Numbered from the stretch's first letter, positions 30,046-63,595 are shown. The stretch is DNA of 64,000 bases from Escherichia phage MRostami-2023e (OQ031495); one strand, 5' to 3'. Notes: generated from the letters alone by a model not told the origin. A program made the numbers and translations.

Positions 30046-30075
30046 GTTTACATAAGGATGATGGTGTGATACTAT
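30046..30075 (+). promoter_or_regulatory. Early promoter (GTTTAC -35, TACTAT -10) upstream of ipI
   Basis: gtttac N18 tactat; -10 sits inside inverted repeat aggatgat/atcatcct. Confidence 0.6.
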
Positions 30076-30109
30076 CATCCTATCAAATAAACAACCTCAA
30101 GGAAATAAA

Positions 30110-30397
30110 ATGAAAACATATCAAGAATTTATNNNNNNNNNNNNNNNNNNNNNNNNNNNNNNNNNNNNNNNNNNNNNNNNNNNNNNNNNNNNNNNNNNNN
30201 NNNNNNNNNNNNNNNNNNNNNNNNNNNNNNNNNNNNNNNNNNNNNNNNNNAAAGGTACTGTTTACCTAGGTGATGGGTGGTCTGCTAAAAAGGATGGTGC
30301 TACAATCGTTATCTCTCCTGCCGAAGAAACTGCGTTGTTTAAAGCTAAACACATTTCTGCAGCACATCTCAAGATTATTGCTAAAAATCTTTTGTAA
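30110..30397 (+). CDS. ipI: Internal protein I (capsid-targeted, injected; interior masked by N)
   Basis: Starts MKTYQEF (capsid-targeting sequence); C-terminal part KGTVYLGDGWSAKKDGATIVISPAEETALFKA... as T4 IPI from memory. Confidence 0.75.
   Translation: MKTYQEFXXXXXXXXXXXXXXXXXXXXXXXXXXXXXXXXXXXXXXXXKGTVYLGDGWSAKKDGATIVISPAEETALFKAKHISAAHLKIIAKNLL
30133..30250. other. N-masked run (118 nt) inside ipI
   Basis: run of n. Confidence 1.
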
Positions 30398-30457
30398 NNN
30401 NNNNNNNNNNNNNNNNNNNNNNNNNNNNNNNNNNNNNNNNNNNNNNNNNNNNNNNNN
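30398..30457. other. N-masked run (60 nt)
   Basis: run of n. Confidence 1.
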
Positions 30458-30467
30458 GGAGAATAAA

Positions 30468-30653
30468 ATGAAACGCGCTGAACTGATTCGTAATGTTGCT
30501 GTAGTAATTGCTTCAATGGCTTTTAGTTTTTCGATGTTTGTAGGATTCATTTGTGGACTACTGACAACAACTGAAAACTCTATCTCATTGGTAGTAGCAT
30601 TTCTAATCGGCTTAATCGCTATCGTTATGGATAAAATTGCAAAAGGTGAGTAA
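30468..30653 (+). CDS. Small hydrophobic membrane protein (61 aa)
   Basis: SD ggag then ATG; MKRAELIRNVAVVIASMAFSFSMFVGFICGLL... Confidence 0.6.
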   Translation: MKRAELIRNVAVVIASMAFSFSMFVGFICGLLTTTENSISLVVAFLIGLIAIVMDKIAKGE

Positions 30654-31016
30654 ATGAAATATCATGTATATGCAGATTTTGAAGCAAATCCTTCTAAAGA
30701 CCATGATTGTCGTTTGATACGCAGACCATTTGATTCAGCAGCTCAAGCCTGGGCTTGGATTAAAACTTGTACTCCTTCTTACACTTTCTTTGAAGTGGTA
30801 GACGATAACGGTGTTCTGCATCCAGAACCTACAGAAACTATTAATTTCCTTCTGTTTGCTGGTTACGACTGTTATCCTCTTGGTGGTATTGACGACCTTG
30901 TTGCTACAGGAAAAACTGTTGAGGCTCTTCGCGAAATTTATAAAAACGCAGAAGAAAATTTTGACTGGTATCATATTGTTGATGCTCATACCTTTGAAAT
31001 GGTGGAACATTCATGA
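30654..31016 (+). CDS. Hypothetical protein (120 aa)
   Basis: ORF track, ATGA-coupled to neighbours. Confidence 0.6.
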   Translation: MKYHVYADFEANPSKDHDCRLIRRPFDSAAQAWAWIKTCTPSYTFFEVVDDNGVLHPEPTETINFLLFAGYDCYPLGGIDDLVATGKTVEALREIYKNAEENFDWYHIVDAHTFEMVEHS

Positions 31017-31303
31017 TTCTTTATGCTAAGGTAAAATCCGTTGAGAATGGATATGAAAGCGACCGAGCTGCAGCTAAAGCACTAGTCGATTACTATGGTA
31101 TTTTGACTAACTTTGAAGTTGAAAAGGTTTACGTCGACCGTTCATCTTCACAGGTTAAATTACTTTGGGAAGACCGCAAATTTAATAGTGTGAACTTTGA
31201 TTTCTTTATTGAAACAGAAAAAGGTCCTCTTGAATATGATATTTTCAAGAATCCTTTGAAATTACGTTGCATTGAATATAATTACATTAATATGGTACGG
31301 TGA
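31013..31303 (+). CDS. Hypothetical protein (96 aa)
   Basis: ORF track. Confidence 0.55.
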   Translation: MILYAKVKSVENGYESDRAAAKALVDYYGILTNFEVEKVYVDRSSSQVKLLWEDRKFNSVNFDFFIETEKGPLEYDIFKNPLKLRCIEYNYINMVR

Positions 31304-31307
31304 GTAA

Positions 31308-32795: not shown

Positions 32796-33428
32796 ATGTA
32801 TACTTTTAATGAATTTTTAGCCGAAACGGAAGTAATCACCGAAGCCGGCGTACGTATGACAAAAGAGAAATGGCAAGCTGCTTACGATGCTATTTCTGGT
32901 ACAAAAACTAGTACAGAGTTTTTCAAAAACGTTCAAGCCATGTACGGTATCGACACTTCCAGCCAAAAAGAATATTACAGAGCTTCTAAAGCATTCAAAG
33001 ATATTGTTAGTGGTGGTGTTTCTGCTAAATCGGGTTCGCCTAAAGTAAAACCTGCTCCTACCATTCCTAAACCTGCGACCCCTAAAGCAATAGCAAAACC
33101 TGAGCCTAAGCCTAAGCCTGAAGTAAAAGCAACTCCTAAAGCTCCTGCTCTTAAGTTTGATACTTCTAGCCTGGAAAAAAAATATAAACAACTATCTTCG
33201 CTTGTTCGCGATATTGAATCCGATACATCTTCACTCGTTCGTGAATTCAATAGTCTTCGTAATGGCCAACATATCAACAACCTTGATACCCCAGACCTTT
33301 ATCGTCTTTATTTGACTATCGAAGGTTTGAAGTATACTCAACCACTTCATGATGAGATTAAAGAAAAACTTCGTCAGGCAGGTCGTTTGGCTGCTGACGC
33401 TGCTCAGTATGCAAAAACTCGTAAGTAA
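32796..33428 (+). CDS. Lys/Pro-rich protein with CTS-like N-terminus (MYTFNEFLAE); candidate virion internal protein
   Basis: 210 aa; N-terminus resembles MKTYQEFIAE; PK-rich linker; own late promoter and terminator. Confidence 0.65.
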   Translation: MYTFNEFLAETEVITEAGVRMTKEKWQAAYDAISGTKTSTEFFKNVQAMYGIDTSSQKEYYRASKAFKDIVSGGVSAKSGSPKVKPAPTIPKPATPKAIAKPEPKPKPEVKATPKAPALKFDTSSLEKKYKQLSSLVRDIESDTSSLVREFNSLRNGQHINNLDTPDLYRLYLTIEGLKYTQPLHDEIKEKLRQAGRLAADAAQYAKTRK

Positions 33429-33480: not shown

Positions 33481-33509
33481 GTTTACTTCTTCCCTAGATG
33501 TGTTACTAT
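33481..33509 (+). promoter_or_regulatory. Early promoter (gtttac N17 tactat)
   Basis: -35/-10 match to T4 early consensus; RBS catgaggagaatattATG shared with 38765 copy. Confidence 0.55.
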
Positions 33510-33537
33510 AGACCCATCAAAACATGAGGAGAATATT

Positions 33538-33798
33538 ATGAGTCTTTACACTGAACTGAATAAAAAATCTGAAGAATCTGCTGAAACTATTTTTAAAAAC
33601 GTGCAAAAGCGTATTTTAGAAAAGATGTATAACACTGCAGCTAAAGGTGAAAAATCTTGCCGGTTCCCGATGAGGTGTTCTTCTGATTTATGCGCAAATA
33701 CTATTGAATGGCTGGAAAGTGAAGGTCTTACGGTAGAGAAAAACCCGGCGATTTCTATTGACAGTGAATCATATATTAGTATTTCTTGGGATAAATCA
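33538..33798 (+). CDS. Hypothetical protein (3' end masked)
   Basis: ORF track; runs into N-masked run. Confidence 0.55.
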
Positions 33799-33827: not shown

Positions 33828-33912
33828 AAATTTGAAAAATTAAAAATAAATGATGTACAAACGCCAAGGACGGTGATACTATAGACTTATCAACTACAGA
33901 GGAGTAAACAAA

Positions 33913-34077
33913 ATGACTACTTTAATTATTTGGTTCGATGAAAATGAAGAAACATACTGTGTGAATATTGGTGAAAGTCCAATGCCCGAATTTGAATCCT
34001 CAGATAAAAACTCTGTTGTATCTTGGGCTGAAGGTTATAAAGCAGCTAAAGGTGACGTTGAAATAATTTACATCTAA
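33913..34077 (+). CDS. Small hypothetical protein (54 aa)
   Basis: ATG with SD gaggag; promoter-like gtacaa...tactat upstream; below ORF-track size cut-off. Confidence 0.45.
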   Translation: MTTLIIWFDENEETYCVNIGESPMPEFESSDKNSVVSWAEGYKAAKGDVEIIYI

Positions 34078-34123
34078 GTAAGTTTATGTTATAGTAATCA
34101 CATCAAATCAAGAGGAAAACAAA

Positions 34124-34351
34124 ATGGCTAAAGTTAGTATTGATGTCGTTGATTATGAATACACAGAAGAAGTTATTCGCAACCGTCACCCTGAAGTTCG
34201 TATCGATTCAGTACAAGATTCCAAGTTCTGGACAACCGAGCTTAATCTGAGTGGTCCTTATGAAGCTGTTAAGAAGTTCATGGTTGAAGAATACTGCGAA
34301 GGCATGCACCCCGAAGACGCCAAGTTTTATGTCAATTTGATTAAAAAATAA
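34124..34351 (+). CDS. Hypothetical protein (75 aa)
   Basis: ORF track; SD gaggaaaacaaaATG. Confidence 0.55.
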   Translation: MAKVSIDVVDYEYTEEVIRNRHPEVRIDSVQDSKFWTTELNLSGPYEAVKKFMVEEYCEGMHPEDAKFYVNLIKK

Positions 34352-34380
34352 TTTACAAACTCTTGAGAGCAGAGTATAAT
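34352..34380 (+). promoter_or_regulatory. Early promoter (tttaca N17 tataat) with -10 in loop of gagagc/gctctc inverted repeat
   Basis: seen in sequence. Confidence 0.55.
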
Positions 34381-34421
34381 GCTCTCGTTGGATAATAAAC
34401 CACCAATTGAAAGGTAATAAT

Positions 34422-35015
34422 ATGAACACACTGAAGAAACTTGTTGAATTCATCCGCACTAAACTGGGTACTGCTATGGCTAAAAATCTGACTGTCGAAG
34501 AACAGTATAACGCAGCTGCAGATAAGTTGATTACCCAAATCAAAGAACTAAAAACGGCTTCTGTTAAATCTATTAATGAAGAAAAACGTATTCGCGAACT
34601 TGTTAATGAAAAGAACAAGCAAGCCGCTTCTAAGGAACGTGAAATTCGTAAGCTCCTGGCCGAAGGACAAGATGTTACCATGCATGCTAAGCTTGGTCTT
34701 CTGTATCGTCGAACTGCCGAACAACTTAATACAAAAGCTGACGGGTATGCCGCTATGCGAATTGAAATTGCTCGTAAGGTGGTTGAACTTGACGATGCTC
34801 GTCAGAACCTGGCAATCAAACTCGAATACATTCGCGAAACTCGAGCAGCTAATGCCCTTGGTATCTCTACGGCCGATGATGTAATTGAAATCGCTGCACT
34901 GACTAAGGTTGATATCGAAGACACTCTGACTCGTGTTGAAACGTTCAATGGCACTCCAGCTGGTGTCGAAACCACTTCTGCTGATGTACAAGAATATATT
35001 AACTCTTTGAAATAA
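34422..35015 (+). CDS. Coiled-coil protein (197 aa)
   Basis: ATG with SD aaagg; heptad-rich sequence. Confidence 0.6.
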
Positions 35016-36031: not shown

Positions 36032-36369
36032 CCGTATGGCCTTCTCTTGGTGAGAACATTCTAATTTTTATTATGAGTATTGGCATGGGATTTGCCTTTG
36101 GATTAGTTGGATTTCTTATTGACGGCGTTGTGTTAGGATTTATAGGGAACACTGGTGGATTCACAGACCAATGGCAGGACTTACGGTATACCCAAGCCTT
36201 TGCATCCATCGCATCCTTTTGTACTGTAGTCTATTTTTACTACGATTTTATAAACCGTAACAAGAAAAATAAAAAGGTTTACGCTTCTCAAATGGTTAGT
36301 TATAATGAACTCCTAGCTAGACGTGAAAATGAAACAATCGAAAACTTTATTAAGGAATGTAGAAAATGA
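36010..36369 (+). CDS. Two-TM membrane protein, C-terminal FIKECR motif (family member 3)
   Basis: SD aaggag; ends ...IENFIKECRK. Confidence 0.65.
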   Translation: MQKPQLLTVWPSLGENILIFIMSIGMGFAFGLVGFLIDGVVLGFIGNTGGFTDQWQDLRYTQAFASIASFCTVVYFYYDFINRNKKNKKVYASQMVSYNELLARRENETIENFIKECRK

Positions 36370-37164: not shown

Positions 37165-37202
37165 GTTTACAACAAGATAGGGCTATGTTATAGTAGTCCT
37201 AT
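37165..37202 (+). promoter_or_regulatory. Early promoter cassette (gtttac ... tatagt) with near-perfect inverted repeat atagggcta/tagtcctat bracketing the -10
   Basis: seen in sequence. Confidence 0.6.
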
Positions 37203-37222
37203 CAAATTAAATGGAGTTCACA

Positions 37223-37462
37223 ATGATTTATTACGAAAGTATCGGAACCGAAGTAGTTGCTAAAACTATTACTCGTGAAAAGTTTGCAAAGATATTCGAT
37301 ATGCGTTATAAAAAATCTGAACACAAAGGCATCCGATTCGAAGATGCGCACTGTACAATTTGCCCTTATAATGAAGACATAAACGGTACAATCGTTCCAT
37401 TGGTAGAGGCTTCACATGTCGACCTCTGGGATGAATATGATATCGCATGTCGTGAAATTTAA
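37223..37462 (+). CDS. Hypothetical protein (79 aa)
   Basis: ATG with SD ggag. Confidence 0.55.
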   Translation: MIYYESIGTEVVAKTITREKFAKIFDMRYKKSEHKGIRFEDAHCTICPYNEDINGTIVPLVEASHVDLWDEYDIACREI

Positions 37463-38728: not shown

Positions 38729-38766
38729 GTTTACACAATTATAGGACTATGTTATAGTAGTCCTAT
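38729..38766 (+). promoter_or_regulatory. Early promoter cassette with perfect 9-bp inverted repeat ataggacta/tagtcctat around the -10
   Basis: gtttac ... gttatagt; RBS catgaggagaatattATG. Confidence 0.6.
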
Positions 38767-38786
38767 TAAAACATGAGGAGAATATT

Positions 38787-39092
38787 ATGAAATTAACAGA
38801 AACCAATCGAATTGGTCTTTTAACAATACTTGCATCACCTTTTTACGCAACTCTTTCTGTTGCGGTATTACAAAAGGCTTACAGTATGGATGGTGTTCCT
38901 GGTTGTATATTTTTATCACCATTTTTGCTATTCGTTGGAGCTTTGTTATTATATGCCACGTCTGGTTTCGACAATAATGTCTGGGTCAATTATAAACGTA
39001 AATTGTCTGAAGAAGAACACGCAGAAGCTCGTAAAAAAGCTATTGAATCTACCAATCTAGAAAATTTCATTAAAGAATGTCGAGGAAAATAA
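38787..39092 (+). CDS. Two-TM membrane protein, C-terminal FIKECR motif (family member 4)
   Basis: ends ...NLENFIKECRGK. Confidence 0.65.
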   Translation: MKLTETNRIGLLTILASPFYATLSVAVLQKAYSMDGVPGCIFLSPFLLFVGALLLYATSGFDNNVWVNYKRKLSEEEHAEARKKAIESTNLENFIKECRGK

Positions 39093-41753: not shown

Positions 41754-41811
41754 TGTTTACTTCCTCCAAGGGTTTTGATACTATACATTCATCAACTACT
41801 TGGAGGAAATT

Positions 41812-42348
41812 ATGACTCGTATCAATTTAACACTTGTTTCTGAACTGACCGACCAACATCTTATGGCTGAGTATCGTGAATTACCACGCGTATTTGGTGC
41901 AGTCCGTAAACATGTTCAAAACGGTAAACGTGTAAAGGATTTTAAAATCTCTCCAACATTTATCTTAGGCACAGGTCACGTAACATTCTTTTACGACAAA
42001 CTTGAATTTTTACGTTTAAGACAAATCGAGCTAATCGCTGAATGTTTGAAACGTGGTTTCAAAATCAAGGACACGACAGTCCAGGATATTTCCGACATCC
42101 CTGCCGAATTTCGTAATAATTATGTCCCGTCCGAAGCGTCCATTGCGATAAGTCAAGCACGCTTAGATGAAAAAATTGCTCAACGTCCGACTTGGTACAA
42201 ATACTATGGTAAATCAATTTACCAAGGAAAAATGAAAATGTATCAAGAATTTATCATTGAAGCAGATGCCAAAGGTCCTAAAGTAGATGTTGACGATATT
42301 GGATACGATTTTAACAACTTCGGAATTATTTCTGGCGGTAAAGCTTAA
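41812..42348 (+). CDS. denV: Endonuclease V (pyrimidine-dimer DNA glycosylase) with C-terminal in-frame extension into a CTS-bearing mini-ORF
   Basis: First ~136 aa match T4 DenV as recalled; ORF lacks a stop at the expected position and continues ...[17 protein letters not shown]... to 42348. Confidence 0.85.
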
Positions 42349-42351
42349 ATT

Positions 42352-42381
42352 GTTTACGCTTAAGTATTAATATGGTATAAT
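42352..42381 (+). promoter_or_regulatory. Early promoter (gtttac N18 tataat)
   Basis: seen in sequence. Confidence 0.6.
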
Positions 42382-42411
42382 TACTCTATCAAAACAAACA
42401 AGGAAACAAAA

Positions 42412-42729
42412 ATGAAAACATATAAAGAATTTATCGCCGAATCTGCTGCAGGACAACGTGTAGAAGGTGGTTATATCTGGATTGAACAAGTTGAGCCGCC
42501 AAGTCGCACTTCTACAGGTAAATGGAAAATCACTGTTGATGGTCCTGGTGGTAAACGTAGGACTCTTAAAGAAATTAATGGGTACTATGAAGAAGCTCTT
42601 TCTGACGCGGGTACTTATATGATGCAAATCATGATTAAAAACCCAGAAAATCGTTTTGCGGCTAGAGTTTTCCGCCGTATTGGAAATAAGCTTTATGATG
42701 CATATTCTAAAAACTTCCCTAAAGAATAA
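42412..42729 (+). CDS. Internal-protein-like gene with capsid-targeting sequence (MKTYKEFIAE)
   Basis: 105 aa; CTS N-terminus; own promoter. Confidence 0.65.
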   Translation: MKTYKEFIAESAAGQRVEGGYIWIEQVEPPSRTSTGKWKITVDGPGGKRRTLKEINGYYEEALSDAGTYMMQIMIKNPENRFAARVFRRIGNKLYDAYSKNFPKE

Positions 42730-45293: not shown

Positions 45294-45344
45294 GTTTACT
45301 TCTCCTCTAGTTGTGTTACTATAGACCTGTCAACTAGAGGAGAA
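45294..45344 (+). promoter_or_regulatory. Early promoter cassette with perfect 14-bp inverted repeat (ttctcctctagttg / caactagaggagaa) spanning the -10 and the SD
   Basis: gtttac N17 tactat; right arm contains gaggag SD of downstream gene. Confidence 0.6.
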
Positions 45345-45350
45345 ATCAAA

Positions 45351-45809
45351 ATGACTATCAATTCAGACGTTTTTATCCGCCGTAATAAACTCCGTCGAAT
45401 CTTTGAAACGGAGTTCCGCAAAATAAATGCCAGTATAAAAGATGCTGCAAAGTCTCTTGGACTACCAGGCTTTCATATCAAGTATTCTCAACATCTCTTA
45501 GATCGTGCCATCCAGAGAGAAATAGATGAGAATTACGTTTTTGAATTATTTCGTAAAGTAAAAAATCATGTTAAAGAAGTTGCAGAATTTTTATCAATGC
45601 CGGCACGTCCAGATGTTGATGAAGATTTTGTCGAAGGCGTCGAATATCGCCCAGGCCGTTTAGAAATAACTGATGGAAATCTTTGGTTAGGACTTACAGT
45701 CTGTCGCGAAAATCCAGCATTCAAAATGAAGACTCTTCAATGCAGAATGGCTATTATTAACAGTAAACGACTACCAGGAAAAGCTTCTAAAGCCGTGATT
45801 AAAATCTAG
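45351..45809 (+). CDS. regB: RegB-like endoribonuclease (tentative)
   Basis: 152 aa (T4 RegB 153 aa); E19, H48, R52 at positions I recall as catalytic in T4 RegB; unverified. Confidence 0.5.
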   Translation: MTINSDVFIRRNKLRRIFETEFRKINASIKDAAKSLGLPGFHIKYSQHLLDRAIQREIDENYVFELFRKVKNHVKEVAEFLSMPARPDVDEDFVEGVEYRPGRLEITDGNLWLGLTVCRENPAFKMKTLQCRMAIINSKRLPGKASKAVIKI

Positions 45810-48952: not shown

Positions 48953-48981
48953 GTTTACTTCTCCTCAGGTTGTGTTATAGT
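48953..48981 (+). promoter_or_regulatory. Early promoter cassette (gtttac ... tatagt) with SD-complementary left arm
   Basis: ttctcctc in spacer complementary to gaggagaa SD downstream. Confidence 0.55.
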
Positions 48982-49008
48982 AAACCTTACTTACTAGAGG
49001 AGAACGTT

Positions 49009-49188
49009 ATGACACGTAAAGAAAAAATTTCTAAGTTAATGTTTTTGATTGAAGAGTACGCTAATGCGGTATCTGATTGGGAAAATGCTCATGGTTGCGA
49101 AGATGGAGACATCGACATTAACAGAGCTATGAAAAAGATGGCTGACGCCCACACCGAATTGCAAATGTATGTTAACGAGATTATGTGA
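49009..49188 (+). CDS. Hypothetical protein (59 aa)
   Basis: ATG with SD gaggag. Confidence 0.5.
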   Translation: MTRKEKISKLMFLIEEYANAVSDWENAHGCEDGDIDINRAMKKMADAHTELQMYVNEIM

Positions 49189-49669: not shown

Positions 49670-49699
49670 GTTTACATCTTGGTAGGATTATGTTATAGT
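49670..49699 (+). promoter_or_regulatory. Early promoter cassette (gtttac ... tatagt, partial inverted repeat)
   Basis: seen in sequence. Confidence 0.55.
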
Positions 49700-49727
49700 A
49701 GTCCTATCAAAACGAACGGAGACCAAA

Positions 49728-49838
49728 ATGAAACTTTTGCTTATCGCTTATGTTGTAGTACAATATAATTATCCGATGTTTACTTATAACATGGTAAACG
49801 GCATAGTGAATCTTATTGAAACGAGTATGGTAAAATGA
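49728..49838 (+). CDS. Small hydrophobic peptide (36 aa)
   Basis: ATG 7 nt after ggagac; below ORF-track cut-off. Confidence 0.35.
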   Translation: MKLLLIAYVVVQYNYPMFTYNMVNGIVNLIETSMVK

Positions 49839-52349: not shown

Positions 52350-52443
52350 AGGGGGTTAAAATATTTTTAAAAAGTAGTGTACATGCTTTTAGGATATGTT
52401 ATTATAGACCTATCGAAACGAAATGAGTAAATTGGAGAATAAA

Positions 52444-53424
52444 ATGTTCAACGTTCAAATCAAAAAAGGTATCTATCGTAATAACGAAATCTCTGGTTCT
52501 TATGTTGCCACAAAGACCTGGTTCCCAGCAAAGCTTAATCCTGAATGTTCCCACTTAGGTGACGGTAAAATTTTCGTTATGATTGATGGTTCTGAACGTG
52601 GAGTATGGGTCTTCAAATCAGACATCGTAATGGAAGGAGTTGAGACATCACCAGTTGCAGTTGTTGAAAGCACTGAAGATATGAAAACTCGTATCAACAA
52701 ACGCTTTAAAGTAATGAACATGATGACGAATGGCATTATCGATGGCAAAATTCGTTCACTCATTATTTCAGGTGCAGCCGGTATTGGTAAGACGTATTCT
52801 CTGGATAAAGCACTTAATAATGCTAATGATAATGGTTTCATCAAATACAAAAGCATTAATGGTAAAATCTCTGGTATTGGCCTTTACGAACAACTTTGGC
52901 TCAACCGTGATGCAGACAGCGTTCTCTTAATCGATGACGTTGACGTATTCTCAGATATGGACATCTTGAATCTTCTTAAAGCAGCATTAGATACTGGAGA
53001 TAAACGCAAAGTTTGTTGGAGCACTGCGTCATCTTATCTCGATGATAAGGGTATTGATAAAGAATTTGAGTTTGAAGGTACTATCGTTTTCATTACAAAC
53101 GTTGATATCGATAAAGAGTTAGAACGCGGTTCGAAACTTGCTCCACACCTTCAAGCTTTAGTATCTCGCTCAGTGTATCTCGACCTTGGAGTACACTCTA
53201 ATGAAGAGATTATGGTTCGAGTTGAAGATGTAATATTATCTACTGACATGATGCAGAAACGTGGTCTGACTGATGCAGAAACGTATAAAGCATTGTCCTG
53301 GATGAAGGCTAATGTATCTCGTCTTCGCAATGTATCATTACGTACCGCTCTTTATGTAGCAGATTTTATTTCAACTGATAAAGATGGTTGGGAGGAAATC
53401 TCTGAAGTAACTTTACTGAAATAA
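52444..53424 (+). CDS. AAA+/P-loop ATPase (326 aa)
   Basis: Walker A GAAGIGKTYS, Walker B VLLIDDVD; start at ATG with SD ggag. Confidence 0.65.
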   Translation: MFNVQIKKGIYRNNEISGSYVATKTWFPAKLNPECSHLGDGKIFVMIDGSERGVWVFKSDIVMEGVETSPVAVVESTEDMKTRINKRFKVMNMMTNGIIDGKIRSLIISGAAGIGKTYSLDKALNNANDNGFIKYKSINGKISGIGLYEQLWLNRDADSVLLIDDVDVFSDMDILNLLKAALDTGDKRKVCWSTASSYLDDKGIDKEFEFEGTIVFITNVDIDKELERGSKLAPHLQALVSRSVYLDLGVHSNEEIMVRVEDVILSTDMMQKRGLTDAETYKALSWMKANVSRLRNVSLRTALYVADFISTDKDGWEEISEVTLLK

Positions 53425-53850: not shown

Positions 53851-53853
53851 TTG

Positions 53854-53888
53854 TTTACAAGGTCTATAGTTATGTTATTATAGACCTA
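53854..53888 (+). promoter_or_regulatory. Early promoter cassette with perfect 9-bp inverted repeat aggtctata/tatagacct around the -10
   Basis: gtttac ... tattat. Confidence 0.6.
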
Positions 53889-53908
53889 TCAACTACTGGA
53901 GGTAAAAC

Positions 53909-54436
53909 ATGAACGCTAAAGATATTTTCAACCTGGTAAATTATAACGACGGTAAATTTAAATCTGAAGCACAAAGCAAGTTCTTTAATGACGTTGCTTA
54001 TGGTAACGAGATTACCGTGGACGGAGGTCAGATTTTCAAATCTCGCTGGAATTGGATTGTTATCATCGATTCAGTTGGAATTGTGGAAGTCTACAAAAAC
54101 ACTAACAAAAAACGTACATTATTCTGGTCTCGTGAAACTAACGAGCAGTACAAAAAGGATAAAGCATCTCGTTTATCCAAAGTAACCCAGGAAGATATCG
54201 AGTTTATCAAGAAAGATATCGAGATGTACGAAAATTTAATCGCTGAAGACCAGGCCGTACTCGATAAGTTTGATGAAATTAAAGCTTCTCGTGAAATCCC
54301 TGACTTCATGAAAGAAACAGTAAACGAACGATACGCTCTCACTTCAGAACGTATTGCAAACTATACAAAACAGAAAGCAGAACGTATTAGTACTCTTCGG
54401 AAATTTGAAGAACGTTTAAAGACGGTTCACGCATAA
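53909..54436 (+). CDS. Hypothetical protein (175 aa)
   Basis: ORF track; SD ggagg. Confidence 0.6.
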   Translation: MNAKDIFNLVNYNDGKFKSEAQSKFFNDVAYGNEITVDGGQIFKSRWNWIVIIDSVGIVEVYKNTNKKRTLFWSRETNEQYKKDKASRLSKVTQEDIEFIKKDIEMYENLIAEDQAVLDKFDEIKASREIPDFMKETVNERYALTSERIANYTKQKAERISTLRKFEERLKTVHA

Positions 54437-54498: not shown

Positions 54499-55494
54499 AT
54501 GAGCATTACATCTGATGCGGTAAAACATGAAATTAACGGTTTATGTGCTTCACAGATTAAAGTGTGGTTTAAAGACCATAACGATCGCAGAGCACTTAAT
54601 TATGAACAAATTGCTATCCAAGTTCATCAATTACTGGTTAGTAAATTTGATTTTCATATGCCGTCTGAAATCTATACTAATCTGCCGCGAGCACTTATTA
54701 AAGCGTGTAAAGGTTATGGAAAATCAATGGCTGATGGAATCTTCAGCGCGCTGAATAAACTTAACGTTCTGTCGATGATTAACTCTAACAACATCCTGCG
54801 TAATCTAGGACGTACTGATTTGTTCGGTCGTGAACAGTGTAAAATGCCTTTGAAATGGATTGTTGCTCATCTTAACGAGAACCAAACACGTTTTATGGCC
54901 GTAACAGCACGCTTACAAATGGGCCTAGATCGTCAGATGAACTTTAAAACTCATCCACGTTATTCAGGTTCAACTGACTTTTATAAATGTGAGCTTCAAA
55001 AGGTTGCAGGTAAAACTGTCTTAGTAGTTCGTGTAACGTTTGAAGGACGACGTCAAGGATATTTTGACATAATCGGCTCCGGGCTTAAACATTGCGGATT
55101 TATCGACGAAGTTGATATCAAGCGAGACGGCACCGGATATCGTATTGGGTATGTTTGTACTCTTAAAGAAGAGATTTCAGGACCAGCACCAGGACTAAAA
55201 GACGTTAGATATAAAGACGAGCTCGTTGAAGAAATAAAAGAAGTTGAATATGATATCAACCAAGAAGATGCTCTTAAAGACCTTATTGATGAACTGAACC
55301 AAGACGTTATTCCTGTTCAGAAATTTGAATCAAAACATGCTGAGCAAATCAAATACTTTGAAGCTTTGATTAACGAACTTAATGTAACTATTCAACAGAC
55401 TGACGATGAAATCTCACGATTAGCAGGCTTAAATGGTAAAAATAAAACAGAACGAGCTAATCTTATTCAGGTAGTAAAACTTCTTAAGGAATGA
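54499..55494 (+). CDS. Hypothetical protein with C-terminal coiled coil (331 aa)
   Basis: ORF track. Confidence 0.6.
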   Translation: MSITSDAVKHEINGLCASQIKVWFKDHNDRRALNYEQIAIQVHQLLVSKFDFHMPSEIYTNLPRALIKACKGYGKSMADGIFSALNKLNVLSMINSNNILRNLGRTDLFGREQCKMPLKWIVAHLNENQTRFMAVTARLQMGLDRQMNFKTHPRYSGSTDFYKCELQKVAGKTVLVVRVTFEGRRQGYFDIIGSGLKHCGFIDEVDIKRDGTGYRIGYVCTLKEEISGPAPGLKDVRYKDELVEEIKEVEYDINQEDALKDLIDELNQDVIPVQKFESKHAEQIKYFEALINELNVTIQQTDDEISRLAGLNGKNKTERANLIQVVKLLKE

Positions 55495-55495
55495 T

Positions 55496-55523
55496 GTACA
55501 ACCAAGGATGGTTGGAGTATAAT
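55496..55523 (+). promoter_or_regulatory. Early promoter cassette (gtacaaccaaggatggttggagtataat), copy 1
   Basis: near-identical to cassette at 56490. Confidence 0.6.
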
Positions 55524-55549
55524 AAATTTTTCAACATGAGGAATATAAA

Positions 55550-56485
55550 ATGGCTTTTATTACACGTAAAGAACTTATCAAAGAATTTACCTCGAACGCA
55601 TATACTCCAGGACCTAATCCTATCCGTATGCCTGTAAAGACTCCTGAAGAGATTGAGGAAGTCTGTTCATATTATGGGATTACTTCTCGTAAGTTTACTC
55701 AATTTGAATGCGTTACTAACACACCCGTTAAAGAGTTCATTAAAAATGGTGAGTTCAGCCGTTTATTAGCCAAACAGAAACTTCGTAATTTTTGTATTGG
55801 CGGTGAAGGACAATATTTCGCTAAGCAGTTCCGGAATAACCTTAACAATCTGATGGCCATTGCTTCTCGTATTCGTCCTCAAGCAATTAACATGAAACAT
55901 TTGAAATATACTTACGATAAGTTGGAAATCATGGTTATCAGTGAGAATGAGTTCACTCTTACGTATAAACCTAAGAATGATAACGTTGCTCGTGTATTTC
56001 ACCAAGCGTTGGAAGTTTTAGGTGATAATATCCACCAGATTAAAGCAATTTATTCACGTGAGCTTAATATTATCAACCCCATCAAGAATAAGGGTCATAT
56101 TGCTATCCAGGCTCGTGTATCTATTGGTAAAAAGGTTCCTGCGCCATGGTGGCACAAAGACTCTGAATACTATCAAAATCTTAAAAAGGAAAATGCATTG
56201 TTTGAAGCATCGCTTACTGGAACCCCAATTGAACAGGCCGAAGTCCTAAGTGCTTATTCTACTTCTNNNNNNNNNNNNNNNNNNNNNNNNNNNAAACTAA
56301 AAGTTTCTAATGACCTTCTTCCGGCCGAAGATTACCATTACAATCAAATCAAGGCCACTATGGACCAACTGTCTGTTGAACTTGACAAAGCACAAGCTAA
56401 GCTTCGTGATGCTCAAAGTGTTGTAACGAATCTCCAGTTGCAGTATTCTAAACTTTTTAACGCAATGAATGCATTAAAATCATAA
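55550..56485 (+). CDS. Hypothetical protein with C-terminal coiled coil (311 aa; 27 nt masked)
   Basis: ORF track. Confidence 0.6.
   Translation: MAFITRKELIKEFTSNAYTPGPNPIRMPVKTPEEIEEVCSYYGITSRKFTQFECVTNTPVKEFIKNGEFSRLLAKQKLRNFCIGGEGQYFAKQFRNNLNNLMAIASRIRPQAINMKHLKYTYDKLEIMVISENEFTLTYKPKNDNVARVFHQALEVLGDNIHQIKAIYSRELNIINPIKNKGHIAIQARVSIGKKVPAPWWHKDSEYYQNLKKENALFEASLTGTPIEQAEVLSAYSTSXXXXXXXXXKLKVSNDLLPAEDYHYNQIKATMDQLSVELDKAQAKLRDAQSVVTNLQLQYSKLFNAMNALKS
56267..56293. other. N-masked run (27 nt)
   Basis: run of n. Confidence 1.
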
Positions 56486-56489: not shown

Positions 56490-56519
56490 GTTTACAACCA
56501 AGGATGGTTGGAGTATAAT
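56490..56519 (+). promoter_or_regulatory. Early promoter cassette (gtttacaaccaaggatggttggagtataat), copy 2
   Basis: 26-nt identity with cassette at 55496. Confidence 0.6.
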
Positions 56520-56547
56520 GAATCTATCTTAACGAGAGGAAAATATT

Positions 56548-57498
56548 ATGACACGTTCACATTACATTGAATACTTTGCAGGTCTTATCGCTAACGTTCA
56601 CGCCCAACGTGCTTCTGGTGCACTAGGATTTGATGTTCCACACCGAGATGTAGTAAGTGGTATTCTTCGCGATTTTGGTACATACATAGGCCAAGAAAAT
56701 CATATCTGTAAAGATACTCAAAATGCGTATTCTCATTCGTTAGGGACGTTGCTTCAATGGTTCAAACGTTCTCGTTTATTATCTTCTACTGTAGCTCGCG
56801 ATAACATTAAAAACTTTATGAAACCGAGCTTTATTAAATCTGTGACATCTAAAACTGATTTGGTTGAATTCACTATTGTTAATGATGTTAAAAAGACTCA
56901 TTTGGCTGATTGGTTATCTACCATTCCTGAAACTAAATTTGCTGATAAATTTGCTTGTGAATTCAATAACCAAGTGAATATGCTTTTTAAACATTCTCGT
57001 AAATTATTCACAGGCGGCGATGATCGTACAAATAAAGTTCATGTTAAAGATTGGGTTACTGCAGTATTCAAACCAACCGGTAATGGTAACGCATCATTAT
57101 CAATTGATATCCAGGTTCCTTATTACTACTCACGTAATCTCGGTACCATGAAAGCCGAAGAAATTAATAAGCGCAACAAAACCATTCGTTCGCTGTCTTA
57201 TAAACTTCGCATGATGTTAAGAATCATGGACGTGGTAGAAATGTATGATGAAACCGAAGATAATGGTTCAATGTTATACAGTTCTCGCATTCAAATTAAG
57301 TTGAAGAACCCTAACGAGTATAAGCCTAAGCCTATTAAAGAACCTAAAGTAGAAAAAGTTGATAACTTAAGAGAAGAACGCGAATATCTCAAATCTCGTC
57401 TGAAAGAAGTCGAAGCCCAGATTGCAGAACAAACTAAATCGTTAAAAGCTCTGAATGCGAAAGCGGATGGTTTACGAAATGCCATTGAGGTGTTATAA
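56548..57498 (+). CDS. Hypothetical protein with C-terminal coiled coil (316 aa)
   Basis: ORF track. Confidence 0.6.
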   Translation: MTRSHYIEYFAGLIANVHAQRASGALGFDVPHRDVVSGILRDFGTYIGQENHICKDTQNAYSHSLGTLLQWFKRSRLLSSTVARDNIKNFMKPSFIKSVTSKTDLVEFTIVNDVKKTHLADWLSTIPETKFADKFACEFNNQVNMLFKHSRKLFTGGDDRTNKVHVKDWVTAVFKPTGNGNASLSIDIQVPYYYSRNLGTMKAEEINKRNKTIRSLSYKLRMMLRIMDVVEMYDETEDNGSMLYSSRIQIKLKNPNEYKPKPIKEPKVEKVDNLREEREYLKSRLKEVEAQIAEQTKSLKALNAKADGLRNAIEVL

Positions 57499-58874: not shown

Positions 58875-58904
58875 GTTTACAACGACGAAGAAACGTGTTA
58901 TGAT
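58875..58904 (+). promoter_or_regulatory. Early promoter (gtttac N18 tatgat)
   Basis: seen in sequence. Confidence 0.5.
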
Positions 58905-58953
58905 GAACCTTCAATAAATGAATTAATTGATATGGAAATGGGAAGAGATTATT

Positions 58954-60242: not shown

Positions 60243-62056
60243 AAATTGAAAAAGAAATTGAAGGATTAATTCATAAAACTAATAAAGACCTTTTAAACGA
60301 GAATGCTAATAAAGATTCTCGTGTTTTTCCAACTCAACGGGACCTTATGGCTGGTATTGTGTCTAAGCACATTGCCAAAAATATGGTCCCGTCTTTTATT
60401 ATGAATGCGCATGAAAGCGGAATCATTCACATGCATGATATTGATTATTCTCCTGCTCTTCCATTTACTAATTGCTGTTTAGTCGATTTAAAGGGGATGC
60501 TTGAGAATGGATTTAAATTAGGCAATGCTCAAATTGAAACGCCTAAATCTATTGGCGTTGCTACTGCAATTATGGCACAAATTACCGCACAAGTTGCTTC
60601 ACACCAATATGGCGGAACTACATTTGCGAATGTCGATAAAGTTCTTTCTCCTTATGTTAAACGCACATACGCTAAACATATTGAGGACGCAGAAAAATGG
60701 CAAATCGCTGATGCGTTGAATTATGCCCAATCTAAAACAGAAAAAGACGTATACGATGCATTCCAAGCTTATGAATATGAAGTAAATACTCTCTTTAGTT
60801 CAAACGGACAGACTCCTTTTGTAACAATTACATTTGGTACAGGAACCGACTGGACTGAACGAATGATTCAGAAAGCAATTCTTAAAAACCGCATTAAAGG
60901 CCTTGGTCGTGATGGAATAACTCCTATTTTCCCTAAGCTTGTTATGTTCGTTGAAGAAGGTGTTAATCTTTATAAAGACGATCCGAACTATGATATTAAG
61001 CAGCTTGCTTTAGAATGTGCAAGCAAAAGAATGTATCCTGACATCATTTCGGCTAAGAACAATAAAGCTATCACCGGCTCATCTATTCCTGTTTCTCCAA
61101 TGGGTTGCCGTAGTTTCTTGAGCGTATGGAAAGATTCAACTGGCAATGAAATTCTTGATGGACGCAATAATCTTGGCGTTGTAACACTGAATCTTCCTCG
61201 TATTGCGTTAGATTCTTATATTGGAACACAATTCAATGAACAGAAATTTGCCGAATTGTTCAATGAACGAATGGACCTGTGTTTTGAAGCTTTGATGTGT
61301 AGAATTAGTTCCTTAAAAGGAGTTAAAGCGACTGTTGCTCCTATTCTTTACCAAGAAGGTGCATTTGGGGTTCGTCTTAAACCTGACGACGATATAATTG
61401 AGTTATTTAAAAACGGTAGAAGTTCAGTGTCTTTAGGATACATCGGTATTCATGAATTGAATATTCTTGTCGGCCGTGATATTGGACAAGAAATTTTAAC
61501 TAAAATGAATGCTCATCTTAAACAGTGGACTGAAAGAACCGGTTTTGCTTTTAGCTTGTATTCTACTCCTGCTGAAAACCTGTGCTATCGCTTCTGTAAA
61601 CTTGATACTGAAAAATATGGAAGTGTAAAAGATGTTACTGATAAAGGCTGGTACACTAACAGTTTCCATGTTTCAGTAGAAGAAAATATTACTCCGTTTG
61701 AAAAGATTTATCGCGAAGCCCCATATCATTTCATTTCGNNNNNNNNNNNNNNNNNNNNNNNNNNNNNNNNNNNNNNNNNNNNNNNNNNNNNNNNNNNNNN
61801 NNNNNNNNNNNNNNNNNNNNNNNNNNNNNNNNNNNNNNNNNNNNNNNNNNNNNNNNNNNNNNNNNNNNNNNNNNNNNNNNNNNNNNNNNNNNNNNNNNNN
61901 NNNNNNNNNNNATTTGTTTGTTCTATGTGTGGAGAAACTGATCCTAAAAAGATGAACACAATAAGAAGAACGTGTGGTTATCTTGGAAACCCGAACGAAC
62001 GCGGATTTAATCTAGGCAAAAATAAAGAAATCATGCATAGGGTTAAACACCAATGA
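60239..62056 (+). CDS. nrdD: Anaerobic ribonucleotide reductase NrdD (uninterrupted; 173 nt masked)
   Basis: 605 aa; C-terminal glycyl-radical motif RRTCGYLGNP. Confidence 0.9.
   Translation: MKIEKEIEGLIHKTNKDLLNENANKDSRVFPTQRDLMAGIVSKHIAKNMVPSFIMNAHESGIIHMHDIDYSPALPFTNCCLVDLKGMLENGFKLGNAQIETPKSIGVATAIMAQITAQVASHQYGGTTFANVDKVLSPYVKRTYAKHIEDAEKWQIADALNYAQSKTEKDVYDAFQAYEYEVNTLFSSNGQTPFVTITFGTGTDWTERMIQKAILKNRIKGLGRDGITPIFPKLVMFVEEGVNLYKDDPNYDIKQLALECASKRMYPDIISAKNNKAITGSSIPVSPMGCRSFLSVWKDSTGNEILDGRNNLGVVTLNLPRIALDSYIGTQFNEQKFAELFNERMDLCFEALMCRISSLKGVKATVAPILYQEGAFGVRLKPDDDIIELFKNGRSSVSLGYIGIHELNILVGRDIGQEILTKMNAHLKQWTERTGFAFSLYSTPAENLCYRFCKLDTEKYGSVKDVTDKGWYTNSFHVSVEENITPFEKIYREAPYHFISXXXXXXXXXXXXXXXXXXXXXXXXXXXXXXXXXXXXXXXXXXXXXXXXXXXXXXXXXXFVCSMCGETDPKKMNTIRRTCGYLGNPNERGFNLGKNKEIMHRVKHQ
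61739..61911. other. N-masked run (173 nt) inside nrdD
   Basis: run of n. Confidence 1.
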
Positions 62057-62520
62057 ATTATGATAGAATTTATCCTTGTGATTTTGTGAATGGCCCTGGT
62101 TGCAGGGTCGTTCTTTTCGTTACAGGTTGTTTGCATAAATGTGAAGGGTGTTATAATAAATCAACATGGAATGCTAGAAATGGTATTCCATTCACTGGTG
62201 AAACACTAAAACAATTAATTGAAATTTTGAATAATGATTAAATAGAAGGATTAACTATAACTGGAGGAGACCCTCTCTATCCTGATAACCGAGATGTTAT
62301 TCATTGCATTGTTCAAACTATTAAAAATCTTTATCCCAATAAAAGCATTTGGTTGTGGACAGGATATAAGTTTGAAGATATTAAACAACTAGAAATGCTT
62401 AAATATGTTGATGTTATTATTGATGGGAAGTATGAGAAAAATCTTCCGACCAAAAAGATATGGCGAGGATCAGATAATCAGCGACTTTGGTCAAATACCG
62501 ATGGGGTGTGGAAACATGAT
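62053..62520 (+). pseudogene. nrdG: Anaerobic RNR activase NrdG interrupted by in-frame TAA at 62239-62241
   Basis: N-terminal 62 aa with CxxxCxxC-type cluster motif (CLHKCEGC) then TAA; downstream same-frame sequence IEGLTITGGDPLYP...RGSDNQRLWSNTDGVWKHD continues the NrdG homology. Confidence 0.75.
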
Positions 62521-62633
62521 TAAATTGAATTATATTATGGATACTATAAATGATATGATTTTTCGTTTTGGTCCAGAATTTTATTCCCAATATAGTTTAG
62601 TGCTTATCAATGCTTAGTTAATTAAGGGTAAAT

Positions 62634-62849
62634 ATGTATAAATTTCGTAAAGGTTTAGCTGATTTTCTTACAACTGTAACGTTCTTTTTGTTTATGGCAG
62701 TTGGAGCTATTTTTCTTATTCCTTTTACTGGAGTATTTTTCGTGATTAGTTTAATTTCTCCAGAAAAGGGTTTATCCTCCAGCGAATTCAATGAACGTTT
62801 GGACAAAATTACTAATAAACTGAATTCTGTTCTTGATAAAAAGGCTTAA
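62634..62849 (+). CDS. Small membrane protein (71 aa)
   Basis: ORF track. Confidence 0.5.
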   Translation: MYKFRKGLADFLTTVTFFLFMAVGAIFLIPFTGVFFVISLISPEKGLSSSEFNERLDKITNKLNSVLDKKA

Positions 62850-62851
62850 TT

Positions 62852-63169
62852 ATGATTAGTTTTGAGCGGTATGTGGTAGAGAGTTGGAAAGGTTTTGATA
62901 TGTTCGGTAATGACTATTATTTCTATGAATGTAGTCTAAATCCTAGTTTTTGGGCTGGACGTGAACGAGATCTCGAAGAAATTAATGCTCGTGCCGAATT
63001 GTTAGGTGAATTGCCTACGGTTTATTTTACCTTTGATGAGTCTGGATTTGTTATCCAGGTTTATTTTCCTGAAGAAAACTCTGGTGAGGATTCTGTTAAT
63101 CCTCCTTATTGGGCTTACCAAGGAATTATTTCTCGTGGAACAAAACTCGAACTTAAAGAACAAGATTGA
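62852..63169 (+). CDS. Hypothetical protein (105 aa)
   Basis: ORF track. Confidence 0.55.
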   Translation: MISFERYVVESWKGFDMFGNDYYFYECSLNPSFWAGRERDLEEINARAELLGELPTVYFTFDESGFVIQVYFPEENSGEDSVNPPYWAYQGIISRGTKLELKEQD

Positions 63170-63458
63170 AATCTATGGCATCCCTGAAGAAGTAGGACGT
63201 TGTCCAGGATGTTATGCTGTTACAAAACTTTTAAAGGAGCTCAATGCTCCTTATACATTTTATAAAGTCCTCACTAATAATGGTAAGATTGAATATGACC
63301 GTCCTTTAATCGTATCTCTGGCTAAACGTGCAGGATTCACTTCACTTAATATTCGTTATCCTGTCATATTTTTAAATGATAAGAAACAAAAGAATATTGC
63401 AGAGTTTAAAAAGTCCTTGATTTCATTAGGATATGACTCTGATATCATAGAAGATTGA
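63165..63458 (+). CDS. nrdH: Glutaredoxin/NrdH-like redoxin; no canonical start codon in frame (possible ATT start or local sequence error)
   Basis: ...IEIYGIPEEVGRCPGCYAVTKLL... redox CxxC motif; reading frame has no ATG/GTG/TTG near the 5' end. Confidence 0.45.
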   Translation: MEIYGIPEEVGRCPGCYAVTKLLKELNAPYTFYKVLTNNGKIEYDRPLIVSLAKRAGFTSLNIRYPVIFLNDKKQKNIAEFKKSLISLGYDSDIIED

Positions 63459-63566
63459 CCAGGTGCCGCCTGGTCTTCTTTATCTCATTTCTAATATAAT
63501 CCATTGGAATCTTCACTTCATTATCTCCTTGTGCCCCTCTCAAATCAAAAATATTTTCATAAAACA

Positions 63567-63595
63567 GTTTACATCCTCGATAGATATGTTAAGAT
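63567..63595 (+). promoter_or_regulatory. Early promoter (gtttac N17 taagat)
   Basis: seen in sequence. Confidence 0.5.

Follow-up and report, generated by a model that had tools for sequence, protein, structure and literature searches.

Stem-loops at the early promoters of an RB69-like phage: PeSL-type cassettes and hairpins predicted for read-through RNA

Early promoters combined with a stem-loop (promoter-early stem-loops, PeSLs) have been described in phages RB49 and phi1, where the stem-loop lies mostly in the interval from the -35 box to the -10 or over the -10 and contains G-T pairs (Arbiol et al. 2010, PMC2839356). Promoter and attenuator activity were measured for these elements, as was recombination into mini-circles; one such stem-loop, inserted behind a promoter and ahead of lacZ, lowered expression about as much as rrnB T1, and the crossover of an RB49 mini-circle was mapped to the loop (PMC2839356). 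The same work, whose main text contains no occurrence of RB69, noted analogous T4-type elements at internal-protein (IP) loci; there, in T-even phages, T4-type early promoters with A/T-rich stem-loops flank the variable IP genes (Repoila et al. 1994, as cited in PMC2839356). PeSLs were later extended to PST/T4 and nt-1/KVP40 (Comeau et al. 2014, PMC4122927), and modular shuffling mediated by them is already published (PMC2839356, PMC4122927). The early promoters of RB69 have been predicted in a paper that makes no mention of hairpins, stem-loops or palindromes at these sites (Nolan et al. 2006, PMC1524935), and the T4 genes e, soc, 49 and I-TevI carry a hairpin that sequesters the ribosome-binding site and has a late promoter embedded in it (Uzan and Miller 2010, PMC3014915). 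Here we analysed the recurrent early-promoter cassettes of Escherichia phage MRostami-2023e (OQ031495) in a stretch of 64,000 nucleotides, hereafter the window, and in particular between positions 30046 and 63595.

The early promoters of this region are probably packaged as PeSL-type cassettes, about half of which carry a hairpin that could form only in read-through RNA. A 10-kb sample of the window (36000-46000) was 100% identical to Escherichia phage vB_EQ1 and 96% identical to RB69, with coverage of 88-91%, which places the window among the RB69-like T4-type phages (Mosigvirus). The strand given is that of early transcription. The span 30046-63595 is one of the 'hyperplastic' early regions (ipI to 55.x) and holds, following the RB69 annotation, 57B/ipI, tRNAs, the e.x genes, e, denV, the vs.x genes, regB, tk, rI, the nrdC.x genes, 49, nrdD/G and the 55.x genes.

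Early-promoter cassettes and their stem-loops

An earlier note on this DNA had listed at least a dozen early-promoter sites, and the observation was confirmed. The motif GTTTAC-N16-19-TANNNT matched 18 times, against 3.74 ± 2.04 expected and with none of 100 shuffles reaching 18, and 17 of these matches lay on the + strand within 30046-63595. Fifteen were credible cassettes, with an A-rich upstream element and a Shine-Dalgarno sequence (SD) and ATG 40-60 nt downstream; five more, which the note had missed, use a variant -35 box (ATTTAC at 34066 and 34351, ATGTAC at 33853 and 55494, GTGTAC at 52377). The total is about 19 cassettes, whose boxes are GTTTAC, ATTTAC or (A/G)TGTAC, then 17-18 nt, then TAnnnT, all on the + strand, which is that of the downstream gene. 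Their layout occupies about 80 nt of intergenic sequence: upstream element, GTTTAC, a spacer of 17-18 bp, TGn-TAnnnT, a leader of about 22 nt and, at the 3' end, the SD with the ATG that opens the downstream gene. The upstream element has the A/T-rich consensus AAAAnAnTTTTCACAAAACA (repeat family D10), the 25 nt upstream being 72% A+T (43% A) compared with 63% (33% A) for the region, and the consensus of the -10/start region is TATAGTAGTCCTATCAA. The T4 early consensus (A-rich upstream element, GTTTAC, TGn-TAnnnT) is present at these sites, and the credible cassettes map one-to-one to the early promoters predicted in RB69 (Nolan et al. 2006, Additional file 3, PMC1524935). The note's reading of the repeated motifs as early promoters is supported; they are the sigma-70-type early promoters of an RB69-like phage.

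A generic sigma-70 scan was not enriched over shuffles (54 vs 51; 53 vs 56), and the T4-type GTTTAC form alone was enriched. The matches at 32088 (TAACGT, within an open reading frame, ORF) and 43316 (TAACAT, without an A-rich upstream element) look like chance and are missing from the RB69 promoter list. The match at 57470 (GTTTAC-18-TATAAT) is doubted on two counts: its -10 runs into the nrdC.2 ATG (57498), and the RB69 list does not include it. Either chance or a promoter for a shorter product could account for this site. Within 57470-57530 there is an in-frame ATG with an SD, at 57528, and the site is kept in RB69.

Each cassette was folded over an interval that opens with the -35 and ends 45 nt beyond the -10, and its minimum free energy (MFE) was compared with dinucleotide shuffles. 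Folds with z scores of -2 to -4.5 were found at 30046, 37165, 38729, 41755, 45294, 49670, 53853 and 63567, and borderline folds at 48953 and 34351; no hairpin beyond shuffle level was seen at 33481, 33853, 34066, 36277, 42352, 52377, 55494, 56490 and 58875. Thus the 'many' sites whose -10 the earlier note placed within an inverted repeat amount to about half of the roughly 19 cassettes; the rest have no stem-loop in or next to the promoter, or a separate hairpin upstream of it (33434-33449, about 52329-52346, and before 48953). In all strong hairpins the spacer (about -30 to -17) supplies the 5' arm; the 3' arm is located at or past the -10, which itself falls within the loop or opens the 3' arm.

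Two classes could be distinguished. Class A hairpins (30046, 34351, 37165, 38729, 49670 and 53853) have a stem of 7-13 bp, a loop of 3-8 nt and a 3' arm that ends at about +1 to +4, with the SD unpaired 15-25 nt further on. In class B (denV at 41755, regB at 45294, mobD.2a at 48953 and, weakly, 55.6 at 63567 and nrdC.5 at 55494), an anti-SD just past the -35, TTCTCCTC or TTCCTCC, pairs with the SD across a loop of 17-30 nt that holds the -10. The repeats singled out by the earlier note fall into both classes. The 9-bp repeat ATAGGACTA 38741-38749 / TAGTCCTAT 38758-38766 is as described and reaches 10 bp with a G·U pair; AGGTCTATA 53860-53868 / TATAGACCT 53879-53887 is likewise present and reaches 11 bp with G·U, its right arm having been placed one base off (53880). 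The perfect 14-bp repeat at regB was also as reported, its right arm holding GAGGAG.

The arms of a hairpin belong together. When spacers were exchanged among 15 cassettes, the summed MFE went from -182 to -135 ± 11 kcal/mol and none of 2000 permutations reached the native value; since a swapped spacer loses the fold, the arms co-vary within a cassette and differ between cassettes. The different arm pairs include AGGATGAT/ATCATCCT, GAGAGCA/TGCTCTC, ATAGGACTA/TAGTCCTAT, AGGTCTATA/TATAGACCT, TTCCTCCAAG/CTTGGAGGAA and TTCTCCTCTAGTTG/CAACTAGAGGAGAA; three class A cassettes (37165, 38729 and 49670) have nearly the same arms. RB69 holds the same cassettes, with few differences, which keep the pairing (at 49670 RB69 has C-G for the window's U·G, and at 53853 an A-U becomes G-U), and T4 has hairpins spanning the -10 at ipI, trna.4, ipII and mobD.x, as well as spacer/SD helices at denV, regB and nrdC.8. 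A wider sample of 42 IMG/VR loci around tk from T4-like phages gave 218 cassettes, 143 of them non-redundant. In these 143 the MFE was -13.1 kcal/mol for native and -9.5 kcal/mol for swapped cassettes (Wilcoxon P = 8e-10), an MFE of -14 kcal/mol or lower was reached by 47% of native and 15% of swapped cassettes, and 62 of the 67 strong folds spanned the -10. By pair counts, 63 cassettes were class A and 36 class B.

To separate RNA from DNA structure, internal mismatches were counted in helices scored with Watson-Crick pairs only. Transition mismatches read on the sense strand were G·T in 15 cases and A·C in 3 (binomial P = 0.004); overall G·U counts from MFE folds are partly a composition effect, since swapped controls too have a small excess on the sense strand, and were dropped in favour of this comparison. 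G·T and A·C would be expected equally often if a DNA palindrome decayed neutrally or if a cruciform were selected, and the bias therefore favours a structure in the sense transcript. Sense folds were also better than antisense folds by 1.2 kcal/mol, compared with 0.6 in swapped controls. These sequence data point to stem-loops that act in sense-strand RNA. A terminator scan reported no cassette hairpin, and what comes after the 3' arms is sequence of the CAAAAC type rather than a U tract; Rfam at the gathering score returned two tRNAs only from 29500-64000 and no family for the cassette hairpins.

Pairing between promoter spacer and Shine-Dalgarno sequence

Sigma-70 transcripts begin about 7 nt past the -10. 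Since the hairpin takes its 5' arm from the promoter spacer and its 3' arm from sequence at or after the -10, a local transcript that begins at this distance would lack the 5' arm, and the hairpin could form only in read-through RNA. No usable transcription-start or 5'-end RNA-seq data for T4 or RB69 were found in the literature. The geometry of class B would suit this, with the 5' arm at -30 to -17, the -10 in the loop and a start site assumed about 7 nt past the -10; the SD is predicted to lie within a stable helix of the long transcript at 41755, 45294 and 48953, and weakly so at 63567. Partition functions predicted an unpaired probability of the SD of 0.10-0.28 in read-through RNA and 0.47-0.81 in local RNA (denV 0.10 vs 0.59; regB 0.21 vs 0.47; mobD.2a 0.16 vs 0.58; 55.6 0.28 vs 0.81). 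At the class A sites (30046, 34351, 37165, 38729, 49670, 53853) the SD is not in the helix and its predicted accessibility is equal in both transcript forms. The earlier note had suggested that the SD is sequestered in read-through but not in locally initiated transcripts; this idea has computational support for a minority, namely denV, regB and mobD.2a and, weakly, 55.6 and nrdC.5, and does not apply to most hairpins, among them the repeats at 38741 and 53860. The spacer of 33481, TTCTTCC, has weak complementarity to the SD.

Across the wider sample, anti-SD 4-mers were found in 29 of 143 spacers, compared with 8.9 ± 2.6 in shuffles, and 26 of the 29 were located 1-3 nt past the -35. In at least ten lineages the spacer/SD helix of regB is kept with different distal arms (CTAGTTG, CTTGACTG, TGTAG, ATTTG, CTTTATG, TTTTAGT), native helices averaging 9.6 bp and cross-lineage pairings 6.7 bp. 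In a gap-free alignment of 14 regB lineages, anchored only on the CTCC/GGAG core, 13 of 16 pairs showed changes on both sides and 76% of cells were paired, against 63% in shuffles. The covariation score was 0.370, compared with 0.148 ± 0.026 in shuffled alignments (0 of 500 reached the native score), and fell to 0.06-0.11 when the partner was slid by 1-3 columns. Pair counts were not taken from a MAFFT alignment of the entire regB leaders, in which the two arms had lost their register.

The denV orthologues also keep the SD pairing with different arms, and five of them (L061, L032, L049, L038 and L059) show a third arrangement, in which the -10/discriminator (GATGTCTTCC; TATGATGTCTTCC) pairs with GGAGGACATC-ATG, so that both SD and start codon are sequestered. 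The compensatory changes at regB, together with the denV orthologues, indicate that these helices are under selection. The nrdC.8 hairpin is of class A in the RB69 group, while in T4 and one other lineage the spacer has the SD as its partner.

Mosaic boundaries and neighbouring features

The cassettes mark boundaries of mosaic segments between related phages. Breakpoints of homology between RB69 and vB_EQ1 fell within the published promoter intervals in 6 of 17 cases, although these intervals cover 6.8% of the sequence (P = 6e-4), and 10 of the 17 were no more than 90 nt from a -35; the junctions were at the -35 (regB), in the spacer (nrdC.10) and in the spacer/hairpin (ORF133 in L021). This enrichment is consistent with the earlier suggestion that near-identical cassettes are recombination substrates, the wording 'near-identical' being too strong for sequences that are 63-86% identical over 36-63 nt. 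Their longest exact shared runs are 27, 23, 22 and 20 nt, and such short runs (up to 27 nt) are homology patches of the kind that the PeSL papers invoke. The 27-nt run, TACAACCAAGGATGGTTGGAGTATAAT, is shared by 55494-55523 and 56490-56519, which lie 996 nt apart and flank nrdC.5; this pair could delete or circularise the intervening gene. At 38440-38466 a second copy of the upstream element and GTTTACA is followed by 262 N and then by GTTTACACAATT (38729), and vB_EQ1 and RB69 have one cassette each and no insert at the position of 38440-38740. A duplicated -35 around a masked segment has the topology expected of a cassette-flanked insertion, and we read it as a candidate for one, the insert itself being masked.

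The window contains 13 N runs, listed with the cassettes in the table. They sit at variable segments, and the sequence within them is unreadable. The window is not collinear with vB_EQ1: each discontinuity coincides with an N run, and the run lengths differ from those in vB_EQ1. Filling the runs from vB_EQ1 by a fixed offset was for this reason invalid. Our guess is that the runs are uncovered variable segments of a reference-guided assembly.

Table. Early-promoter cassettes and promoter-like sites, with their hairpins and RB69 counterparts, and masked (N) runs of the window. Positions count from the first nucleotide of the window; dG, folding free energy; HMM, hidden Markov model.
Coordinates	Strand	Downstream gene or location	Promoter boxes	Hairpin	z	RB69 promoter
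30046..30112	+	internal-head-protein gene (ATG 30110)	-35 GTTTAC 30046; -10 TACTAT 30070-30075	class A: AGGATGATGGTG 30055-30066 / TACTATCATCCT 30070-30081	-3.3 and -3.63	Pe:77187
33481..33540	+	ATG 33538; repeat family D15		none significant over -10	+0.7	
33853..33915	+	ATG 33913	-35 ATGTAC; -10 TACTAT 33877-33882	none over -10		Pe:72567
34066..34126	+	frd.3 (ATG 34124)	-35 ATTTAC	none		Pe:72354
34351..34424	+	e.6 (ATG 34422)	-35 ATTTAC; -10 TATAAT 34375-34380, in loop and 3' arm	class A: GAGAGCA 34365-34371 / TGCTCTC 34380-34386; dG -14.4	-1.97	Pe:72069
36277..36368	+	weak; inside e.3 coding sequence	-10 TATAAT 36301-36306	none	+0.3	Pe:70143 (HMM score only 4.9)
37165..37225	+	RB69ORF135c homologue (ATG 37223)	-10 TATAGT 37189-37194	class A: GATAGGGCTAT 37176-37186 / GTAGTCCTATC 37193-37203; one sense-strand G·U pair	-3.6	Pe:69254
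38729..38789	+	RB69ORF133c homologue (ATG 38787)	-10 TATAGT 38753-38758	class A: ATAGGACTAT 38741-38750 / GTAGTCCTAT 38757-38766	-3.32	Pe:67959
41755..41814	+	denV (ATG 41812)	-10 TACTAT 41779-41784, in loop	class B: spacer TTCCTCCAAG 41761-41770 / SD region CTTGGAGGAA 41799-41808	-4.2 and -4.48	Pe:64934
42352..42414	+	internal-head-protein gene (ATG 42412)		none	+0.1	Pe:64193
45294..45353	+	regB (ATG 45351)	-10 TACTAT 45317-45322, in loop	class B: spacer TTCTCCTCTAGTTG 45300-45313 / SD-containing CAACTAGAGGAGAA 45331-45344	-4.0 and -4.45	Pe:61376
48953..49011	+	mobD.2a (ATG 49009)		class B: TTCTCCTC 48959-48966 / GAGGAGAA 48997-49004	-1.6 and -1.75	Pe:58138
49670..49730	+	36-aa hydrophobic ORF (ATG 49728)		class A: TTGGTAGGATTAT 49679-49691 / GTAGTCCTATCAA 49698-49710	-2.9	Pe:57689
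52377..52446	+	nrdC.10	-35 GTGTAC; TGCTTT in spacer	none over -10		Pe:55018
53853..53911	+	nrdC.8 (ATG 53909)	-10 TATTAT 53876-53881	class A: AGGTCTATAGT 53860-53870 / ATTATAGACCT 53877-53887	-2.0 and -2.12	Pe:53683
55494..55552	+	nrdC.5	-35 ATGTAC	small, within spacer only		Pe:52042
56490..56550	+	nrdC.3	TTTACA-17-TATAAT, 11/12 matches to sigma-70 consensus	AACCAAGGATGGTT, within spacer, not spanning -10	+0.5	Pe:51019
58875..58929	+	promoter-like; inside coding sequence upstream of pin		none	+0.9	Pe:48639
63567..63627	+	55.6 (ATG 63625)		weak class B: TCCTC 63574-63578 / GAGGA 63613-63617 and inner helix	-2.8	Pe:43945
9804-9954, 30133-30250, 30398-30457, 33799-33827, 38467-38728, 42778-43217, 45081-45282		N runs				
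47155-47416, 47561-47568, 49289-49628, 56267-56293, 59540-59724, 61739-61911		N runs, continued				

Several neighbouring features were noted along the way. A UUCG-tetraloop hairpin (33434-33449) lies 32 nt upstream of cassette 33481, and a UUCG-type hairpin lies at about 52329-52346, upstream of cassette 52377. They belong to a 55-nt repeat (33422-33476 and 52319-52373, 71% identical) containing a UUCG-type tetraloop hairpin (GGGGACTTCGGTCCCC / GGGGACCTTCGGGTCCC) followed by TTTAGGGGG, and both copies stand just upstream of a cassette without a hairpin over the -10. In the nrdC.10 cassette, the GTGTAC -35 together with the spacer TGCTTT (52377-52405) resembles a MotA box, and this may be a mixed early/middle promoter. 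The site at 58875 is kept in T4 (record position 47452). The 36-aa hydrophobic ORF right after cassette 49670 (MKLLLIAYVVVQ..., 49728-49838) is annotated in vB_EQ1 and not in RB69. Five small genes (ATGs 30110, 41472, 42232, 42412 and 42746) start with MKTY(Q/K/S)EF(I/L), one of them as MKMYQEFI; these starts form repeat families D4 and D7, and two of the genes are annotated 'internal head protein' in relatives. Such starts resemble the capsid-targeting N-terminus of T-even internal proteins.

Possible roles of the stem-loops and comparison with known systems

If hairpins form in read-through RNA as predicted, class B messages arriving from upstream would be closed to ribosomes, and also to RegB, because RegB requires single-stranded GGAG (PMC1702504), and locally started RNA would be open to both. 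Expression of a class B gene would then be tied to the brief window in which its own early promoter fires, and the untranslated stretch may add Rho-dependent polarity. To judge from their layout and the sense-strand bias, class A hairpins would most likely affect the message coming from upstream, serving there as pause site, attenuator or barrier to 3' decay, or else insulate the leader from upstream sequence. A bolder generalisation, which we put forward only tentatively, is that many T4-type early-promoter spacers double as anti-SD in a conserved and selected 'promoter-gated translation' (regB, denV, nrdC.8, mobD.2a and others). If true, it would leave only RNA from a gene's own promoter translatable and would confine the proteins to the first minutes of infection despite continued read-through transcription, and it would give the stem-loops of PeSLs a concrete function.

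The original PeSL proposal, in which the stem-loops are attenuators or terminators for polymerase coming from upstream each cassette ends one transcription unit and begins another, and SD pairing is incidental, seems to us rather unlikely. It draws on the lacZ result in RB49/phi1 (PMC2839356), on the position of the hairpins 10-25 nt past the upstream stop codon, and on the true terminator-like hairpins that precede some cassettes (33434-33449; AGCCCC..GGGGCTTTTT directly before 48953), but no cassette hairpin has a U tract or appeared in the terminator scan, the stems are A/T-rich with -14 to -21 kcal/mol, unlike the GGGG..CCCC stems tested in RB49, and the loops of 17-30 nt in class B, tuned to the SD with compensatory changes, would be needless for a terminator. 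Even less weight goes to an action of the inverted repeats in DNA, as cruciforms or single-strand hairpins that make the cassettes recombination hot spots and shuffling linkers and are retained for that reason. The breakpoints and their junctions at the -35 or spacer (regB, ORF133, nrdC.10), the duplicated -35 around the masked segment (38460/38729) and the RB49 mini-circle crossover in the loop (PMC2839356) would all suit it; yet shuffling requires homology between cassettes, not self-complementarity inside one, the 15 to 3 bias towards G·T is not expected of a double-stranded cruciform, one third of the helices involve the SD, and cassettes without a hairpin lie at breakpoints as well.

The earlier note had also offered a protein operator. 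The palindromes would then be bound by a dimeric phage-encoded DNA-binding protein that shuts off early promoters. Although the palindromes overlap the -10 and the shut-off of T4 early promoters is described as incompletely understood (PMC3014915), we consider this highly improbable: the window has at least eight unrelated arm sequences (such as ATAGGACTA, AGGTCTATA, AGGATGAT, GAGAGCA, TTCCTCCAAG and TTCTCCTCTAGTTG), complementarity and not sequence is conserved, arms range over 7-14 bp and loops over 3-30 nt, with no constant placement relative to the -10, and half of the early promoters have no palindrome, none being shared and conserved. Hardly more credible is an unselected by-product of promoter consensus or base composition. 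The -10/start consensus TATAGTAGTCCTATCAA and the nearly identical arms at 37165, 38729 and 49670 would be its best arguments, but swapped spacers lose the folds, each cassette has a different complementary pair, the regB orthologues show compensatory changes, and z scores descend to -4.5 against dinucleotide shuffles. An RNase III site was set aside on general knowledge, the stems of 7-15 bp being shorter than typical substrates, and so was an antisense terminator, the T-rich run of the - strand (complement of the upstream element) starting about 12 nt past the hairpin.

Several points weigh against PeSL-type cassettes whose hairpins form in read-through RNA. Since roughly half of the cassettes lack a hairpin, promoter function does not depend on one, and the role of class A hairpins, which lack a U tract and were not picked up as intrinsic terminators, is unsettled. 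Start sites, read-through and hairpin formation in vivo all enter the argument as predictions. The P values overstate independence, because the compared cassettes are partly orthologous; part of the energy gap between sense and antisense folds is a composition effect, which swapped controls show too; and anchoring the regB alignment on CTCC/GGAG gives an advantage to the core pairs but none to the distal ones. Finally, the change of class between lineages at nrdC.8 points either to a role that any hairpin may fill or to simple exchange of spacers by recombination.

The present analysis adds evidence for selection on the stem-loops in many T4-like lineages and for their action in sense RNA, and the observation that the 5' arm is always upstream of the predicted start site, which would tell read-through from locally started RNA. 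For regB and denV it offers a testable explanation of expression limited to a short early burst, and for PeSL stem-loops a concrete hypothesis of function besides terminator and recombination site; since T4 shows the same structures, experiments are feasible in the model phage.

The cassettes themselves are of a known kind, predicted RB69-type early promoters that fit the published PeSL concept. They share with the RB69 predictions (Nolan et al. 2006, PMC1524935) the sites, the GTTTAC -35, the upstream element and the extended -10. Like PeSLs, they are intergenic, lie in hyperplastic early regions and have an A/T-rich upstream element, sigma-70 -35 and -10 boxes about N17 apart and an SD with ATG at the 3' end; the stem-loop between the boxes or over the -10, the G-T pairs and the tie to indels and replacements are also common to both. 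On these sequence features they are classed as PeSL-type elements, terminator activity and mini-circles being those measured in RB49/phi1. RB49 PeSLs have G/C-rich stems (GGGG..CCCC) and a TTGACA -35, whereas here the -35 is GTTTAC and A/T-rich stems span the -10; the stem-loops of PST/T4 PeSLs are drawn just upstream of the promoter, and those described here lie over the -10. Pairing of an early-promoter spacer with the SD, seen here in a subset, is not described in T4 reviews or in the accessible text of the PeSL papers (PMC2839356, PMC4122927), the older primary literature on regB and denV being outside this scope.

At T-even IP loci the likeness extends to gene content, as cassettes 30046 and 42352 precede IP-like genes beginning MKTYQEFI. 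The window also holds a hairpin of the other known type: at gene e (lysozyme, ATG 40988), AATACCTCC..GGGAGGTATT (40958-40990; dG -18.3 kcal/mol, z -2.2) sequesters the SD, and its loop contains the late-promoter-like TATAAAC. Class B cassettes resemble T4 e, soc, 49 and I-TevI in that the SD and/or AUG would be paired in the long RNA and the internal promoter's own transcripts would lack the 5' arm. They differ in that the T4 genes use a late (gp55) promoter and their expression is delayed, whereas in the cassettes the promoter is a sigma-70 early one, the spacer itself is the anti-SD, and the effect is a predicted one.

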